Shown one piece after another: positions 2,871 to 19,115 of a DNA stretch of 64,000 bases; the stretch's first letter is position 1; every line of letters starts with the position of its first letter. The position numbers and the translations under genes are program-made. The DNA lies in the NCBI GenBank assembly GCA_964512985.1, contig CAZELI010000002.1:11252-75251 (forward strand). Direction: 5' to 3'. The notes beneath the pieces are model-generated. The model was not told where the DNA came from and ran no database searches. It saw nothing but the letters and a program-made list of their open reading frames with translations. This stretch comes from an uncultured Gammaproteobacteria bacterium (lineage in GTDB: Bacteria > Cyanobacteriota > Vampirovibrionia > LMEP-6097).

Positions 2871-3617
2871 ATGAGGCTCGGTTTCTATGATTCAGGCTTG
2901 GGTGGTTTGTCTGTATTAAAAGAGTTTGTTGCTAAGTTTGGTACTAAATATTCATATAGTTATTTTGGAGATTCTGCACGTGCACCTTATGGTGACAAAA
3001 GTCCAGAACAATTAAAAAGTTATGTTTTTGAGATTGCTGAATATATGCAAGCTGATGATGTAGATATATTAATATCCGCTTGCAACACTAGCTCTATGTA
3101 TCTTGATGAGATTGATTTAAGTGATTTTAGTTTTCAAATTATTAGTTTGAGAAATGTAATGGATAAGTATTTTGCTGATAATGCTCATAAATATAAGAAT
3201 AAGCAAGTAGCATTAATGGCAACCAATGCAACTATCGATTCTGGGCGTTATAAGAATTGGCCCGTAAATATTTATCCTGTTAAATGTCCGACTATAGTTC
3301 CATTATTAGAAGATACTAAGTTAGAAGCTGCTAAAGTCGAATGGCAAAAATATCTAAAAGAACTACCAGAAGATGTCAAGGACATTATTATTGGTTGTAC
3401 GCATTTTTCTTTCTTAAACTCAACAGCAACTTCTAATTATAATTTTATTGATCCAGCAGATATAGTGCTAGAGCAATTTTCAAGTTCTATCTTTAATGAT
3501 GGAATGATTAACTATGTTAAAGATCAAACTAAACTAGAGCTTGATATTAAAATTAATTTTACTAAAGGCTCTGAAGAATATTTAAACTTGGCTACTGAAC
3601 TTTTAGGTCTGAACTAG
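2871..3617 (+). CDS. murI: glutamate racemase
   Basis: GFYDSGLGGLSV N-terminus and the two catalytic Cys motifs (SACNTSS, GCTHFSF). Confidence 0.85.
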   Translation: MRLGFYDSGLGGLSVLKEFVAKFGTKYSYSYFGDSARAPYGDKSPEQLKSYVFEIAEYMQADDVDILISACNTSSMYLDEIDLSDFSFQIISLRNVMDKYFADNAHKYKNKQVALMATNATIDSGRYKNWPVNIYPVKCPTIVPLLEDTKLEAAKVEWQKYLKELPEDVKDIIIGCTHFSFLNSTATSNYNFIDPADIVLEQFSSSIFNDGMINYVKDQTKLELDIKINFTKGSEEYLNLATELLGLN

Positions 3618-4086
3618 TGAAAGGATTAAGTCTGTCATTGATTGACAGCAGCATCTTCCCCAATATAGATCTTAGTTCTGGATCAATTATATATTGGTTA
3701 GGATCTGCTTTAAACGCTTCTCTCAGTTCTTCAAAAGATGGTTTAGTACTTAAGATCTCATAAGAACGTAATAGATCTAGTCCAACAATTAATCCGGAAT
3801 TATTGAAATTAAAGGGATTAACTTTTAAACCTAAATTCAGTGGTCCAAACTTTCTATTTAAGGAAGCTAGTTTCCTGCGAGTTTTTTTATTAGGGCTGTA
3901 GTTAGCAGTAAAGCTTTCTTTAGTTAAAACTCGCTCTGTTTGATTTAAAATTAATTTGGTCTCTATAGTTTCCTCGGAGGGAATGCTAATAATCTCTAAG
4001 GGTGTAGAACCTTCTTCTGTCGCTAAAACCGCTTGTGGACTGCTTAATAGCCATATTAAAATAAAGATATACGGGAACTTACCCAT
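3592..4086 (-). CDS. hypothetical secreted protein
   Basis: 164 aa ORF with a hydrophobic signal-like N-terminus (FILIWLLSSPQAVLA) and no recognised domain. It overlaps the murI 3' end by 26 nt. Confidence 0.4.
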   Translation of the reverse strand: MGKFPYIFILIWLLSSPQAVLATEEGSTPLEIISIPSEETIETKLILNQTERVLTKESFTANYSPNKKTRRKLASLNRKFGPLNLGLKVNPFNFNNSGLIVGLDLLRSYEILSTKPSFEELREAFKADPNQYIIDPELRSILGKMLLSINDRLNPFTSSDLKVQ

Positions 4087-13949: not shown

Positions 13950-13995
13950 GGTGGCTTTATTATAGCTTGTTGATTAAGAGTTTAGAGAATTATTC

Positions 13996-14020
13996 ATTAG
14001 GCAACTTTTTTCTTGGTATG
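13996..14020. repeat. left copy of a 25 bp imperfect direct repeat (24/25)
   Basis: attaggcaacttttttcttggtatg matches attaggtaacttttttcttggtatg at 16158-16182. This copy covers the 3' end of the antitoxin gene. Confidence 0.7.
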
Positions 14021-14308
14021 AAGAAGTTTACTAATAAGCTTGGGTGCCCTCTGAATACAAATTAGATATGAAGCAACACTGTGATCTGGAGAATTCACTC
14101 CCTGTTCCCATTTCCTGAGTGTCTCTAATGAGAAGCCAAAAGTTGTAGAAAAAGCCTGCTGAGTCATCTTAAGTGATCTACGGATTTTTTTTACATCAAT
14201 ACCTTTTCTTACGGTTCTTACAGAGCTTGGGTTGGCAAGAGCTTCTTCAATAGACTCTATTAGTTCTTCACCTAAGGATTTTTCTTGTTTTATCTTTTTG
14301 GTTGACAT
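13997..14308 (-). CDS. XRE/NadS-type helix-turn-helix antitoxin
   Basis: 103 aa with the HTH segment IRRSLKMTQQAFSTTFGFSLETLRKWEQG. It lies 2 nt downstream of the toxin ORF. Confidence 0.75.
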   Translation of the reverse strand: MSTKKIKQEKSLGEELIESIEEALANPSSVRTVRKGIDVKKIRRSLKMTQQAFSTTFGFSLETLRKWEQGVNSPDHSVASYLICIQRAPKLISKLLHTKKKVA

Positions 14309-14310
14309 AA

Positions 14311-14646
14311 TTATTCTTTAAATTGTTTAATTAATTTAGGGATTAGTTTCTTGAGTTGATTTCTTTCCGCATCAGATATATTTTCTTTTTTAGTTTTCTC
14401 GTATGTCCCTATCATTATAATTAAAAGTCCTTTTGAGTAATGATATAGTATCCTTAATCCCCCACTTTTACCTCTATGACTATGTTGAGATTGCCATCGA
14501 AGTTTCCTAACACCACCAGTTCCGCTTATAATTTTTCCTGCGTCAGGATATTGCATTAGGTAGTCATATAGATTCTCTAAATCTCCAAGACTAAGTACAT
14601 CACTTGAATCCTTTATGAATTTAGCTGTGGTTTTAATAGTAATCAT
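14311..14646 (-). CDS. RelE/HigB-2-like type II toxin
   Basis: 111 aa. GGVRKLRW...GKSGGLRILYHY is the motif typical of HigB-2/DUF1044-type toxins. Toxin-first order as in hig systems. Confidence 0.7.
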   Translation of the reverse strand: MITIKTTAKFIKDSSDVLSLGDLENLYDYLMQYPDAGKIISGTGGVRKLRWQSQHSHRGKSGGLRILYHYSKGLLIIMIGTYEKTKKENISDAERNQLKKLIPKLIKQFKE

Positions 14647-14655
14647 ACTTTTCAG

Positions 14656-14688
14656 ATGGTATGATATACTACTAGTATGTTATACCAT
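14656..14688. promoter_or_regulatory. 33 bp near-perfect palindrome upstream of the toxin gene (putative operator), overlapping an extended -10-like TGGTATAAC on the minus strand
   Basis: atggtatgatatactactagtatgttataccat has 14 of 16 arm positions complementary around centre 14672. It lies 10 nt upstream of the toxin ATG. Confidence 0.45.
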
Positions 14689-14829: not shown

Positions 14830-15354
14830 TTAAAATATTGCGGACGCTTGTGACGTCTGAGCGCACATAGGAATCTTTTTTATTAATCTAAAAGCAAAAA
14901 TACATAAGCTAATTCCTAAAGCAAAATTTAGAATTATATCAATTAAAAATCCTGGAATAGCTCCAAATAAAGGGTTTGTGTTTGATATAGGATATAGTGG
15001 ACTCATATCTTTATCATATAAACAACTAACAAAAAAGACACCGAGAGTACCTAATGTACTACCAAATAAAATAGAGGACCAAGAACTGGTGAACTTTAAT
15101 ATACTAGCAATTAACTTAGTAATGAGAATAGTGAGAATTAAATATATCAAGGCACCTGGAAGTTTACTAAATAAGCTTGGTGGTTCACCAACTTCGTATG
15201 CTCCAATTAAATAAATTATTTCTGCACAGATCATTATTAGAGCAACACAGTAAGAGGTAAATGAAAAATGTTTTGTAAATATTGCTTTGAAGAATAATGC
15301 TGGAGCAAAGCAAATCAATAAACCATAAATTAAAAGGAATAAAACTTTTATCAT
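14830..15354 (-). CDS. hypothetical polytopic membrane protein (candidate immunity partner)
   Basis: 174 aa with about 5 hydrophobic helices. Its start overlaps the stop of the upstream ORF by 4 nt (translational coupling). Confidence 0.45.
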   Translation of the reverse strand: MIKVLFLLIYGLLICFAPALFFKAIFTKHFSFTSYCVALIMICAEIIYLIGAYEVGEPPSLFSKLPGALIYLILTILITKLIASILKFTSSWSSILFGSTLGTLGVFFVSCLYDKDMSPLYPISNTNPLFGAIPGFLIDIILNFALGISLCIFAFRLIKKIPMCAQTSQASAIF

Positions 15355-16007
15355 CCTAAATTATTCTCCCCTATTCCATCTAATTTAGACATTGGTGTTT
15401 CAATATCATTAATAAGTGCAACTGTATAACCAGGATATTCACCTGAGTTGATTTTATTAACAAACTCTTCCCTGTACATTGTAAAATTTGTACTCAAATC
15501 TAAAAATCTTATATTTCTACCTGTTTCACTTTCTTCAATAACTCTGACAGGTTTAACTAAATAACCTTGATAAGCTCTGGAATCTTCATCTTGATTAGTT
15601 GTAGTAATTAAACCATTATTTTCTATTTCTTTTTTCAAGGCATCTGCTAAATCTTTTTTTGAACTTGTAGAGCTGCCATATGAGCGTCCAACTTCGTTGT
15701 TCCAGAGATCCATATTTTTTTGTTCTGGTGGTTGCTTTCGAATTAAATCCCCCATCAGTTCATTGAATTGCCCTAAAAGATTAGCAGTGAGTTCATGATA
15801 TTTTTGAGTATAAACTCCACTTACATAGGCGTGACGAAAAGCATCAACATCATTATTAGAAAATGCTCCGCTATCAATATCCCAATCACCATCTGAAGTT
15901 TTAGGTAATGCTCTGATATTGTCATTAAAATATTGGTAAGCCTCATTTTGAGCTTCTTTCTTAGCATTCCATAGTTTAGCTATTTCTTCAAAAAGTGAGT
16001 TCAACAT
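15351..16007 (-). CDS. hypothetical soluble protein with a DxFRHAYxSG...NE...MDLWNNxxGR motif block (candidate toxin/enzyme)
   Basis: 218 aa ORF with conserved-looking His/Glu/Asp motifs. The C-terminal segment ends in a ...PMSKLDGIGENNLG pattern. No confident family assignment. Confidence 0.5.
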   Translation of the reverse strand: MLNSLFEEIAKLWNAKKEAQNEAYQYFNDNIRALPKTSDGDWDIDSGAFSNNDVDAFRHAYVSGVYTQKYHELTANLLGQFNELMGDLIRKQPPEQKNMDLWNNEVGRSYGSSTSSKKDLADALKKEIENNGLITTTNQDEDSRAYQGYLVKPVRVIEESETGRNIRFLDLSTNFTMYREEFVNKINSGEYPGYTVALINDIETPMSKLDGIGENNLG

Positions 16008-16157
16008 GGTAACTCCATTGTAACATTAGCCATTTTATTCTTCTACTGACTTTCGAGTTTGAAAGCCTTTGTATATAAGGTTTTCAGGAAAATATTAATA
16101 GTAATATTGTAGTTAAATTTCTTTAATAATATGGGTTGATTTATATAGGTGGTTTTA

Positions 16158-16182
16158 ATTAGGTAACTTTTTTCTTGGTATG
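16158..16182. repeat. right copy of the 25 bp imperfect direct repeat
   Basis: attaggtaacttttttcttggtatg lies in non-coding DNA between the island and secA. Confidence 0.7.
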
Positions 16183-16241
16183 TAACCGATCACCAAAGTA
16201 ATTATTTTGAAAAGGTAACAGGAGCGTGTGAAGTCAGAACG

Positions 16242-19115
16242 TTACCTAACCCCTTTGGTTTCTACTTTAGCTCCTACAAGTTTAGCTTTCTCACTTACTA
16301 TCTGAGCATGGTAGAGCAGTGATACAGTGTTCTTTCTGATTTCCACTAGTAAATTATCAAACATATCAAAACTTTCACGCTTATATTCTATAAGCGGGTC
16401 TTTTTGTCCGTAACCTTGTAAGTGAATACCTTCCTTAAGTGAGTCCATAGAATGAATATGGCTGATCCACTTAGAATCTATAACATGAAGCATGATTTGT
16501 CTTTCTGCTTCGCGTAGTATCTCAGCTCCTAACGTTGCTTCCTTGTTAGTATAAATTCGTTGCGCTGAAGTTTTCACTTGGTGCATTAATGCTTCAAAAT
16601 TAGCATCGTCAGCTGTTTCGCCGATATCAATACCAGTCATTATATCTTCGGTAAAATCAGCCTTGAGTGATTCAAACAGCTTGGTAATAGCGCTTGGACC
16701 TTGGCTATCATCGTACCAAAGTTCCTTGGGGGTATTAGGAGTGATCTGAGCTAAAACCAAAGTCTCTATATGCTCATCTATCATGTCAAGTATATGAGCA
16801 TGTATATCCTGCCCCTCAAGGATTTCTCTCCGCTCTCTATAAATTACTTCTCTTTGGGTATTAATGACATCGTCGTATTGTAAGACATGCTTACGTATAT
16901 CAAAGTTATGAGCTTCAACTTTCTTCTGAGAGTTATTGATAGCACCAGTGATGATACTTGCTTCTATTGGTAGATCTTCATCAGCCTTAAGCATATTCAT
17001 TACCGATACTACTTTCTCACCACCAAAGATTCTCATCAAGCTATCTTCAAGCGATAGATAAAACTTAGACGCTCCAGGATCACCTTGACGACCGCATCTA
17101 CCTCTAAGCTGATTGTCTATTCTTCTACTTTCGTGCCTCTCACTACCTATTACATAGAGACCACCTTCTTCGATAATTTTCTTTTGCGCTTCAAGATTAA
17201 CAGTGTTGTAATCGGGACTCTCTGGGTCACTAGAAAGATGTCCGCCGAGTATGATGTCGGTACCACGACCTGCCATGTTCGTAGCGATAGTGACAGCACC
17301 AAGCTTTCCTGCTTCTCTAATAATCTGCGCTTCTTTCTTGTGATGCTTAGCGTTAAGGACGTTAGCATTGATACCCTTGCGAATAGCTGCTAAGACCATT
17401 ACCACTTTCTCGAAGCTCTCTATGGCGAACTTCAAGTCTTCACTTGGCTTAGCAATGCTTACTGAAATGAAGTCTATGATTGGTTTAATGTTCTCAGGGC
17501 TTAGGTTGCCAGGTTTATCCAGAACTTTAAGAGCAGCAGCATCTAACTCTATCTTATTAGATTTGAGTTGACGTTGGAGCCGATCTATTCTAAATTGCAG
17601 AACATTTAATGCAGTATTAGGTTTAGTAAGAATATTAGCTAAATATTCTGATTTCTCGATACTAGTAGTACCTACTAAGGTAGGGGTTCCCTGATTATGA
17701 GCCTCTACTATATCTTCCGCTATCGCAAAAAACTTAGCTGCTTCTGTTTTATAAACTACATCATTGAGATCTATTCTGATACAAGGTTTATTAGTTGGAA
17801 TAGTAAGAACTCCAAGGTTATAAATTTTCTCAAACTCTTCAGCTTCAGTAGTTGCTGTACCAGTCATACCGCCAAGTTTAGGATATAGCCTAAATAAGTT
17901 TTGGAAAGTGATACTTGCCATAGTAAGGGTTTCGTCTTGAATTGGCACGCCTTCTTTCGCTTCTACAGCTTGATGTAAGCCATCTGACCATCGACGACCT
18001 TCCATTAAACGTCCAGTGAATTCATCAACTATGACGATTTCTTTTTTGCCATTTTTTTCGCTTTTCTTCACGATATAGTCAGTGTCTGCGATAAATAATT
18101 CTTTAGCACGCAAGGCTTGAATCAAATGATGGGCTAGGTTTAATTCTGGATCCCATAGATCAGTAACTTTTAATATAGATTCAGCTTGTTTAATACCAGC
18201 ATCTGTAAGAATCACATTGCGAGCCTTCTCATCGACATAGTAATGTGAGTCAGCTGAAGTATCTTTCTCTCCAGTGCCACGTTTCATTTGTTTCACGGTT
18301 TTGCTCATGGCTTGATAAACCTCACCCTTGCGAGCATCTGGCATACCACTAATGATTAATGGAGTACGAGCTTCATCTATAAGAATACTGTCTACCTCGT
18401 CTATGATTGCCATGTAGTATGGCTTTTGGACGCAATCATTGATCTCTGTTTCCATATTGTCACGGAGATAATCAAACCCAAACTCATTATTAGTACCGTA
18501 AGTGATGTCACTGGCATAAGCTTCCTGACGAGCTTTAGAGTTCTTGCCAGAAATAATTAAACCAACACTTAAACCAAGAAATTTATATAGTCTACCCATC
18601 CACTCAGAGTCCCGTTGAGCTAAGTAATCATTGACGGTAATTACATGTACACCTCGTGCTGCTAAGGCATTCAGGTAAGCAGGTAAAGTACAAACCAAAG
18701 TCTTACCCTCGCCAGTTTGCATCTCAGATATGCCACCACGATGTAACTGTATTCCACCAATTAACTGCACATCAAAATGACGCATTTTAAGTACACGTCT
18801 AGCAGCTTCTCTACAAACTGCAAACGCTTCTGGTAATATTTCTTCCAAGATTTCTTTTAGGGCTTTATCATGGCTGGTTCTAACTTGACCAGGCATTTTA
18901 GGGACATCATCCTTGATAAGTTTTTCGAATGGAGTTTCGCTGATTCTAACTTGAATTTTTGATTGAAATTCACGAGTTTTGGCTTTAAGTTCTTCGTCGT
19001 TTAGAGTTTGTATTTGTGGTTCTAAAGAATTGATCTGTTCAACAATGGGCTTTATCTTGTCTAGGATCTTTTTATTTGGGTCACCTGTGAAAATTTGTAG
19101 TACTTGGTCGAGCAT
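16242..19115 (-). CDS. secA: preprotein translocase ATPase SecA
   Basis: 957 aa with DEAD-like motor motifs (MQTGEGKTLV, IDEVDSILIDEARTPLIIS, TNMAGRGTDI). Confidence 0.95.
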   Translation of the reverse strand: MLDQVLQIFTGDPNKKILDKIKPIVEQINSLEPQIQTLNDEELKAKTREFQSKIQVRISETPFEKLIKDDVPKMPGQVRTSHDKALKEILEEILPEAFAVCREAARRVLKMRHFDVQLIGGIQLHRGGISEMQTGEGKTLVCTLPAYLNALAARGVHVITVNDYLAQRDSEWMGRLYKFLGLSVGLIISGKNSKARQEAYASDITYGTNNEFGFDYLRDNMETEINDCVQKPYYMAIIDEVDSILIDEARTPLIISGMPDARKGEVYQAMSKTVKQMKRGTGEKDTSADSHYYVDEKARNVILTDAGIKQAESILKVTDLWDPELNLAHHLIQALRAKELFIADTDYIVKKSEKNGKKEIVIVDEFTGRLMEGRRWSDGLHQAVEAKEGVPIQDETLTMASITFQNLFRLYPKLGGMTGTATTEAEEFEKIYNLGVLTIPTNKPCIRIDLNDVVYKTEAAKFFAIAEDIVEAHNQGTPTLVGTTSIEKSEYLANILTKPNTALNVLQFRIDRLQRQLKSNKIELDAAALKVLDKPGNLSPENIKPIIDFISVSIAKPSEDLKFAIESFEKVVMVLAAIRKGINANVLNAKHHKKEAQIIREAGKLGAVTIATNMAGRGTDIILGGHLSSDPESPDYNTVNLEAQKKIIEEGGLYVIGSERHESRRIDNQLRGRCGRQGDPGASKFYLSLEDSLMRIFGGEKVVSVMNMLKADEDLPIEASIITGAINNSQKKVEAHNFDIRKHVLQYDDVINTQREVIYRERREILEGQDIHAHILDMIDEHIETLVLAQITPNTPKELWYDDSQGPSAITKLFESLKADFTEDIMTGIDIGETADDANFEALMHQVKTSAQRIYTNKEATLGAEILREAERQIMLHVIDSKWISHIHSMDSLKEGIHLQGYGQKDPLIEYKRESFDMFDNLLVEIRKNTVSLLYHAQIVSEKAKLVGAKVETKGVR

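Follow-up and report, generated by a model that had tools for sequence, protein, structure and literature searches.

A candidate two-gene conflict module: a Min-Wnt (Lipocone) protein encoded with a degenerate YdjM-like membrane protein

Min-Wnt is a prokaryotic family of the Lipocone superfamily, with a soluble four-helix core and a fifth helix (Burroughs, Nicastro & Aravind, eLife 2025, PMC12419801). In that survey, the ancestral Lipocone active site comprises a His in helix 2, a Glu in helix 3 and an Asp in helix 4, the motif sNxxGR is clade-specific, and the Lipocones of the SAW clade are soluble conflict effectors. Min-Wnt domains are used as the toxin tips of polymorphic toxins, some accompanied by an immunity protein with four transmembrane (TM) segments, and every published immunity protein of a Lipocone toxin is a TM protein or a lipoprotein (PMC12419801). 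Leaderless Min-Wnt-DUF3892 proteins have been predicted, computationally, to be intracellular antiviral effectors that act on lipid II or carrier lipids (PMC12419801; also Burroughs & Aravind 2020); they were recorded at 17 loci, sporadically in 'Pseudomonadota' and with no conserved neighbour (PMC12419801, supplement files 33 and 36). Here we analyse a protein of this architecture together with the membrane protein encoded beside it, an overlapping gene pair at positions 14830-16007 of a 64,000-nucleotide stretch of contig CAZELI010000002.1 (assembly GCA_964512985.1), hereafter the window, from a Melainabacteria-like genome (G000; 2.31 Mb, 76 contigs, 87% complete). We give about an even chance to the reading that the two genes form a conflict module, in which a Lipocone toxin would be held in check by a membrane neutraliser.

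Other described systems bear on this reading. TelC, an LXG toxin of Streptococcus intermedius, cleaves lipid II (PMC12419801). VanZ and YfiM are Ca2+-dependent lipid-linked-oligosaccharide pyrophosphatases that require a His/Glu/Asp/Asp site, and overexpression of YfiM leads to osmotic lysis. BteO, a type VI secretion system (T6SS) effector of Bacteroides fragilis GA3, is toxic in the periplasm only (PNAS 2025, PMC12541434; PDB 9UU0); it is reported to be non-catalytic and to bind the C-terminal domains of OmpA (PMC12541434).

The Min-Wnt protein and its overlapping membrane partner

The two open reading frames (ORFs), read directly from the sequence, and their parts are the following.

15351..16007, minus strand: leaderless soluble protein of 218 aa, Min-Wnt (DUF6973, Lipocone) with a DUF3892-like C-terminus (PF22322 match, published seed in the family alignment, AlphaFold2 model)
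15600..16007, minus strand: Min-Wnt domain proper, residues 1-136, five helices (AlphaFold2 domain model, invariant residues, fold match to BteO)
15354..15560, minus strand: C-terminal beta-rich DUF3892-like domain, residues ~150-218, ending in an invariant NNLG (AlphaFold2 model, sub-cut-off PF13031 matches)
15351..15354, minus strand: ATGA stop/start overlap, translational coupling (sequence)
14830..15354, minus strand: partner of 174 aa with five TM segments, degenerate YdjM/DUF457-like, without the His/Asp metal motifs (BLASTP to P0123, alignment A5, hydropathy)

The plus-strand TCAT at 15351-15354 is ATGA on the minus strand, where the stop codon of the 218-aa gene overlaps the start codon of the 174-aa gene. 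GGAG lies 8 nt ahead of the ATG of the first gene, and GGGGAG, within the first gene, lies ahead of the ATG of the second. The same 4-nt overlap is present in a paralogous pair of the same genome and in the related genomes G006 and G009. By a Kyte-Doolittle scan, the 174-aa protein has five hydrophobic segments and the 218-aa protein has none. The preliminary description of this DNA had proposed the ATGA coupling, a soluble protein and a partner with about five TM helices, and each of these was borne out. The motif block that it quoted is also present, as DVDAFRHAYVSGVYTQKY (residues 53-70), NELMGDL (82-88) and MDLWNNEVGRSYG (99-111), and is far from a chance pattern because a 61-sequence alignment is invariant at D55, R58, H59, E83, D100, N103, N104, G107 and R108, and likewise at Y24, A56, A60, G79, N98, M99 and I134.

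It had placed neither protein in a characterized family, and here the outcome differs: both can be placed, the first in DUF6973/Min-Wnt and the second as a YdjM/DUF457 relative. Residues 12-130 of the 218-aa protein match Pfam DUF6973 (PF22322) with 44.7 bits against a cut-off of 27, and the same domain is matched by all 40 aligned homologues. Homologues are uniform in length (about 215 aa) and numerous (183 in one search and 559 representatives in another, at E<=1e-3). The Bacteriovorax stolpii Min-Wnt seed WP_102242990.1 (PMC12419801, supplement file 16) has a near-identical counterpart in P0133, one of the full-length sequences of alignment A1; as P0133 stands in the window protein's own alignment, the window protein belongs to the Min-Wnt family. 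Literature searches on DUF6973 found no publication, and searches of NCBIfam and PADLOC gave no match for either protein of the pair.

The predicted structure agrees with this placement. The AlphaFold2 model of the full-length protein has a mean predicted local distance difference test score (pLDDT) of 86.9; that of residues 1-136 reaches a pLDDT of 92.5 and a predicted template-modelling score of 0.88, with helices at 2-30, 53-70, 72-90, 94-113 and 117-129. H59 falls in helix 2, E83 in helix 3, and D100, N103-N104, G107 and R108 (the sNxxGR motif) in helix 4. The protein thus shows what characterizes SAW-clade Lipocones: it is soluble, has a four-helix core and a fifth helix, and carries His/Glu/Asp and sNxxGR. 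By family alignment and model we assign it to DUF6973/Min-Wnt, in the SAW clade of the Lipocone superfamily, with an intact predicted His59/Glu83/Asp100 site. The hydrolase-type or metal site suspected from its His, Glu and Asp content would accordingly correspond to the three ancestral Lipocone positions.

Among solved structures, BteO stands closest. A Foldseek search of the PDB with the full-length model returned antibody noise only; with the domain-only model, BteO (9uu0_A) was the sole high-probability match (probability 0.97, template-modelling score 0.46 over 81 columns, E 1.5). BteO (9UU0) also appears in a PDB sequence search, with E 0.044 by single sequence and 2.4e-4 by profile, and its aligned fragment has a DUF6973 score of 47.4 bits. 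Four of the six residues that BteO requires for toxicity (R143, H144, E168 and D191) correspond in the alignment to R58, H59, E83 and D100, which are invariant, and H144, E168 and D191 are Lipocone active-site positions. We found no link between BteO and Lipocone or Min-Wnt in the literature, the BteO and Lipocone papers included. An activity directed at lipid precursors might explain the altered muropeptides and lysis that BteO causes. A match to a well-characterized non-toxic family, which would have spoken against a toxin, was not seen; DUF6973 includes the experimentally toxic BteO.

The C-terminus is harder to name. Its model has strands at 154-159, 165-170 and 175-178, a helix at 179-187 and then a hairpin, and the three-strand meander with its helix agrees with the published description of the DUF3892 fold. 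The window's own C-domain gives nothing against PF13031 (DUF3892) at E<=10; those of two homologues reach E 3.9e-4 (21.3 bits, cut-off 22.3) and E 0.022, and with HMMER only 2 of 40 family members have PF13031 at E<0.01. Only one bona fide DUF3892 protein, sought for a comparison profile, turned up among 301 genomes of the phylum, and hhalign against that single sequence gave no match and was uninformative. We write 'DUF3892-like' because the HMMER matches are only marginal.

The 174-aa partner matches no Pfam family at E<=1, and a word-based homologue search with it retrieved only its own sequence and the paralogue. Its ancestry surfaced only through the neighbour of a Min-Wnt homologue, 57% identical to the window's, in the same-genus genome G002 (locus L002). 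There, 3 nt after the Min-Wnt gene, starts a gene for a 163-aa protein (P0123) that scores above the PF04307 (YdjM/DUF457) cut-off (33 bits against 29) and to which the window partner is 32% identical by BLASTP (E 2e-22). In alignment A5, the motifs PYH, D..E, HRFLH and SH..LD..MHHD are kept in P0123 and in a solo YdjM gene on contig C1 of the window genome, and all four are replaced in the window partner, its paralogue and the partners in G006 and G009. YdjM catalytic residues are thus lost in the partners of four of the five loci of the window's clade, G002 being the exception. Because its metal motifs are all replaced, we regard the 174-aa protein as a degenerate YdjM/DUF457 relative, a predicted five-TM pseudo-enzyme derived from a membrane hydrolase.

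The second pair of the window genome lies on contig C1. Its enzyme is 82% and its partner 72% identical to those of the window, and DNA similarity between the two loci (84%) is limited to the two module genes (window 15975-14876); the two genes alone are the duplicated unit. The ratio of nonsynonymous to synonymous substitution rates between the pairs, 0.17 in the enzyme gene and 0.48 in the partner gene, indicates purifying selection on both and faster evolution of the partner.

Membrane partners across phyla

We found 253 relatives in named genomes, mostly of Bdellovibrionota and also of Margulisbacteria and UBP8, several genomes having two or three copies. In a census of 76 homologous loci in other phyla, 46 carry, immediately upstream on the same strand and often with a 4-nt overlap, a gene of a 2-4-TM family of about 115-160 aa. 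Three more loci have other polytopic proteins and another three have N-terminally anchored ones, bringing the loci with a membrane partner to about 52 of 76. The upstream family has no Pfam match. Two ideas were rejected: that this family diverged from YdjM (hhalign probability 0.1%), and that the downstream YdjM-like gene serves as a universal partner, since that gene is confined to the window's own family. At least three unrelated families occupy the membrane-partner position. Such non-homologous replacement fits immunity genes, for which it is typical. Coupling to a small membrane protein, noted at first for one locus, is thus seen both as a 4-nt overlap within the clade and as a membrane partner in most census loci.

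The outer flanking genes are dominated by conflict families (Fic/DOC, AbiEii, HipA, HTH_37, RhuM, ResIII, N6_Mtase, Eco57I, TOTE-AEP and Bro-N). The neighbourhood survey that the preliminary description had called for accordingly finds toxin-antitoxin (TA), abortive-infection (Abi) and restriction-modification (RM) genes beside the homologues, in a tally that has no background rate. Metallophos (calcineurin-like phosphoesterase) is the commonest flanking family (8 of 121). Four loci of Halobacteriovoraceae/Bacteriovoracaceae (L069, L077, L080 and L088, at about 3200-3990, minus strand) have no upstream TM gene and carry instead a gene of ~256 aa that diverges 14-20 nt from the Min-Wnt gene; the Metallophos count does not imply identity with these divergent genes. 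A third type of partner stands at L011 3256-3693, L013 394-870 and L024 1692-2171. DUF6973 also occurs at the N-terminus of large RTX proteins and in phage proteins.

Such a widespread coupling to small proteins of 2-5 TM segments could also mean that the membrane protein is a sensor, an anchor or a release factor rather than a neutraliser: a docking site, a sensor like KwaA of Kiwa, or a holin-like exporter. A Lipocone enzyme must, after all, reach lipid head groups in the bilayer, and the G002 partner keeps the YdjM metal motifs and so may do more than bind. A conserved co-factor, however, fits less well than a rapidly replaced neutraliser with at least three unrelated families in the partner position, with a partner that evolves faster than the enzyme, and with the loss of catalytic residues in the partners of four of the five clade loci. 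We consider a sensor or anchor unlikely.

An islet of conflict genes and its distribution

The pair lies in a 2.2-kb islet between secA and trpE, whose remaining features are these.

16008..16241, minus strand: leader or intergenic region from secA to the module, holding the right islet repeat and a repeated hairpin at the secA stop codon (sequence comparison)
16155..16182, no strand assigned: right copy of the 28-nt direct repeat, family D5 (repeat search)
14311..14646, minus strand: RelE/HigB-like toxin of a type II TA pair, islet cargo outside the two-gene module (PF06296, 29.3 bits)
13997..14308, minus strand: helix-turn-helix (HTH) antitoxin, MqsA/NadS-like, of the same neighbouring TA pair (PF15731, PF01381, TIGR03830, NF041265)
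13993..14020, no strand assigned: left copy of the 28-nt direct repeat, coding the 3' end of the antitoxin gene, its final eight codons plus the stop (repeat search)

The two copies of the 28-nt repeat (93% identical) bracket both module genes and both TA genes, in line with the earlier placement of the pair beside a type II TA system in a repeat-bracketed islet (PF06296 toxin, HTH antitoxin). In G006 and G009, secA directly abuts trpE, an empty site. In G002 the junction holds a 7.3-kb insert (G002:C4:233021-240336, L106) with four orphan ORFs of 1315, 222, 237 and 372 aa that have no Pfam match. Because the junction is empty in the first two relatives and differently filled in the third, we regard the islet as an insertion at a variable hotspot. 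The 22-nt core of its repeat was found neither in the empty-site relatives nor in the G002 insert, and no attB is definable.

Smaller repeats surround the module. A hairpin element of ~40 nt (AGGTAAC...GTTACCT) at 16202-16247 overlaps the secA stop codon, has at least 10 more copies in the window genome (85-94% identity) and many in G001 and G002, and may be a repeat of the repetitive extragenic palindromic or terminator type. About 80 nt of the Min-Wnt leader (16077-16156) recur at 80-87% identity on contig C5 of the window genome and on three G002 contigs, and may represent a leader or promoter that moves with cassettes. A near-perfect palindrome of 33 nt with a 15-bp stem, at 14656-14688, lies directly upstream of the RelE/HigB-like toxin gene and is probably the operator of the TA pair.

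The paralogous locus (L008 5061-9724, contig C1) is situated between PEPCK and hflX, and its cargo comprises a PemK-type TA pair, a 244-aa orphan, the solo intact YdjM gene, an AbiEii gene with an AbiEi-like gene, and the second Min-Wnt pair. The ortholog of that solo YdjM gene is the gene downstream of the Min-Wnt gene in G002. In G032, a genome of the same class (L094 586-2028; L097), two tandem proteins of ~430-480 aa have an internal DUF6973, one of them ending in EF-hand/RTX-like Asp-rich repeats; these are likely secreted versions.

These distributions bear on a housekeeping explanation, in which the pair would be a YfiM/VanZ-like quality-control pyrophosphatase for lipid-linked precursors with a membrane subunit. 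YfiM and VanZ are physiological in carrier-lipid turnover, and the purifying selection on both genes would suit such a role. Against it, only 6 of 41 related genomes have the family, with two copies in the window genome; the islet is absent from relatives; TA/Abi genes (HigBA, AbiE, PemK and VapBC) adjoin the module at every locus of the window's clade; and the published survey describes the Lipocones of the SAW clade as soluble effectors in conflicts. A housekeeping role is therefore very unlikely in our view, and the patchy homologues are accessory rather than consistently housekeeping, as had been anticipated.

Proposed action and comparison with known systems

We favour the toxin/neutraliser reading because an apparently intact enzyme of the lipid-head-group type is combined with a partner that is membrane-embedded, coupled, fast-evolving and non-homologously replaced. 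The preliminary description had likened the pair to effector/immunity or abortive-infection modules, and the likeness finds support in that DUF6973 is a toxin-type family; the partner's immunity role, like substrate, toxicity, neutralization, trigger and intracellular deployment, is something that we infer. In the proposed mechanism, the 218-aa enzyme would be deployed within the producing cell, its DUF3892-like domain serving as a sensor or regulatory part. The co-translated five-TM protein, as antitoxin or immunity protein, would keep the enzyme bound or shielded at the membrane, and an insult such as infection by a phage would set the enzyme free. By analogy with characterized Lipocone enzymes, a metal-assisted site of His59, Glu83 and Asp100 (with Asn104) would then cut a carrier lipid, for example lipid II or another precursor linked to undecaprenyl pyrophosphate, at its phosphate-linked head group, and cell-wall synthesis would stop. 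We favour intracellular deployment because an export signal is missing from the protein, neither TssC nor Hcp was found in the genome, TA, Abi and RM genes surround the module, and the membrane gene comes first in most loci.

A number of results weigh against this proposal. The function of Min-Wnt-DUF3892 proteins, the window protein included, is a predicted one, and our DUF3892 assignment is weak, hence the suffix. No SAA, Wnt or TelC structure is among the Foldseek matches listed for the full-length or the domain-only model, and BteO is reported to be non-enzymatic (PMC12541434). The metal motifs persist in the G002 partner, and an enzymatic role of the partner is thus conceivable; about a quarter of homologous loci have no membrane partner; and the flank tally of conflict genes, given without a background rate, does not imply enrichment in defence islands. 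As to the compartment, both BteO and TelC exert their toxicity exclusively from the periplasmic or outer side (PMC12541434; PMC12419801), which speaks against an intracellular target. Three marine loci have an N-anchored, apparently periplasm-facing partner, which suggests action outside the cytoplasm. TssC (PF05943) and Hcp (PF05638) were not found in the window genome, whose completeness of 87% leaves absence of a T6SS unproven.

The results on the compartment bring forward a serious rival, if a rather improbable one: an antibacterial or prey-directed toxin, exported by an unrecognized route, that attacks the envelope from outside, with a membrane immunity protein that, on the outer side of the inner membrane, shields the producing cell and its kin, as in BteO-BtiO or TelC-TipC. 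Action of BteO and TelC from the periplasmic side only speaks for it, as do the three loci with periplasm-facing partners, the RTX-fused versions, which are clearly secreted, and the published immunity proteins of Lipocone toxins, all of them TM proteins or lipoproteins and the 4-TM type found with Min-Wnt included. The family is, moreover, concentrated in Bdellovibrionota and found also in a Melainabacteria lineage, groups that include predators. The 218-aa protein itself, however, has no signal peptide, TM helix, PAAR, LXG, RHS or RTX part; neither TssC nor Hcp was found; genes of TA, Abi and RM systems, not of secretion systems, lie around it; the membrane gene is upstream in most loci, whereas polymorphic-toxin immunity genes are downstream; and the published analysis regards Min-Wnt-DUF3892 as intracellular. 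Delivery by a T6SS in the style of BteO is unsupported, with no TssC or Hcp and no TM segment in the 218-aa protein.

A broader form of the toxin/neutraliser proposal is possible and we advance it tentatively, leaning against it for now: Min-Wnt-DUF3892 proteins and small membrane proteins would make up a widespread, unrecognized two-gene Abi/TA system, in which a membrane antitoxin, in the window's case a pseudo-enzyme descended from a YdjM hydrolase, restrains a carrier-lipid-cleaving Lipocone toxin at the inner membrane until infection is sensed. A corollary would be a shared catalytic site in effectors of the BteO type, described as 'non-enzymatic'.

The preliminary description called the soluble protein uncharacterized, which needs correction, as its Min-Wnt-DUF3892 architecture is already described, by computation (eLife 2025). 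What appears to be unrecorded is the systematic membrane partner of Min-Wnt-DUF3892, the YdjM-derived pseudo-enzyme partner in a Melainabacteria-like clade, the occurrence of the family outside 'Pseudomonadota' and the membership of BteO in the DUF6973/Min-Wnt family. Animal Wnt proteins are proposed to descend from bacterial Min-Wnt domains, whose role as lipid-head-group enzymes in conflicts is so far a prediction. The locus offers a compact, easily cloned case, with an intact predicted site and a candidate neutraliser in the same operon, and so makes the published prediction directly testable. Our census adds a component missing from the published survey, a membrane partner in most loci drawn from at least three unrelated families. 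The window's clade also provides an immunity-type protein apparently derived from a membrane hydrolase through loss of its metal site, and the analysis ties the experimentally studied BteO to the Lipocone superfamily.

Among the systems with which the pair can be compared, TelC-TipC and VanZ/YfiM/Llp1 belong to the same superfamily according to the eLife paper, though to other Lipocone families, with a His/Glu/Asp (plus polar) site and, as substrates, the phosphate links of polyprenyl-linked cell-wall and glycan precursors; neither TelC nor VanZ/YfiM gave a direct sequence or Foldseek match to the window protein. TelC, a lipid II phosphatase, has a membrane-anchored immunity protein, TipC, and is secreted by a type VII secretion system. 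VanZ and YfiM are integral membrane proteins, unlike the soluble window protein, and have Asp as the fourth site residue where the window protein has Asn104. The partner resembles the membrane-bound putative metal hydrolases YdjM/YbcI (DUF457, PF04307) and DUF4184 in length and hydrophobic pattern; unlike YdjM/DUF457, it is without the metal motifs, falls below every Pfam threshold and is translationally coupled to a toxin-type gene.

BteO-BtiO shares with the window pair a DUF6973 toxic head, the only solved structure similar to our model, and a two-gene arrangement of toxin and protector. BteO differs in its N-terminal TM helix, its T6SS delivery, its periplasmic action and its neutraliser, the soluble periplasmic OmpA mimic BtiO, whereas the window protein, without a TM helix and with a DUF3892-like domain, is paired with a polytopic membrane protein and comes from a genome in which no T6SS was detected. 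Closest of all in design are the Min-Wnt-DUF3892 proteins of the survey, which are of the same family and the same leaderless two-domain architecture as the window protein, with H/E/D and sNxxGR intact; the RTX-fused and phage-encoded relatives named in the survey (PMC12419801) are also seen here. Unlike the survey loci, the window case lies in a Melainabacteria-like genome and the family extends to Margulisbacteria and UBP8, with a membrane-partner gene in most loci, and in the window's clade that partner appears to be a pseudo-hydrolase derived from YdjM.

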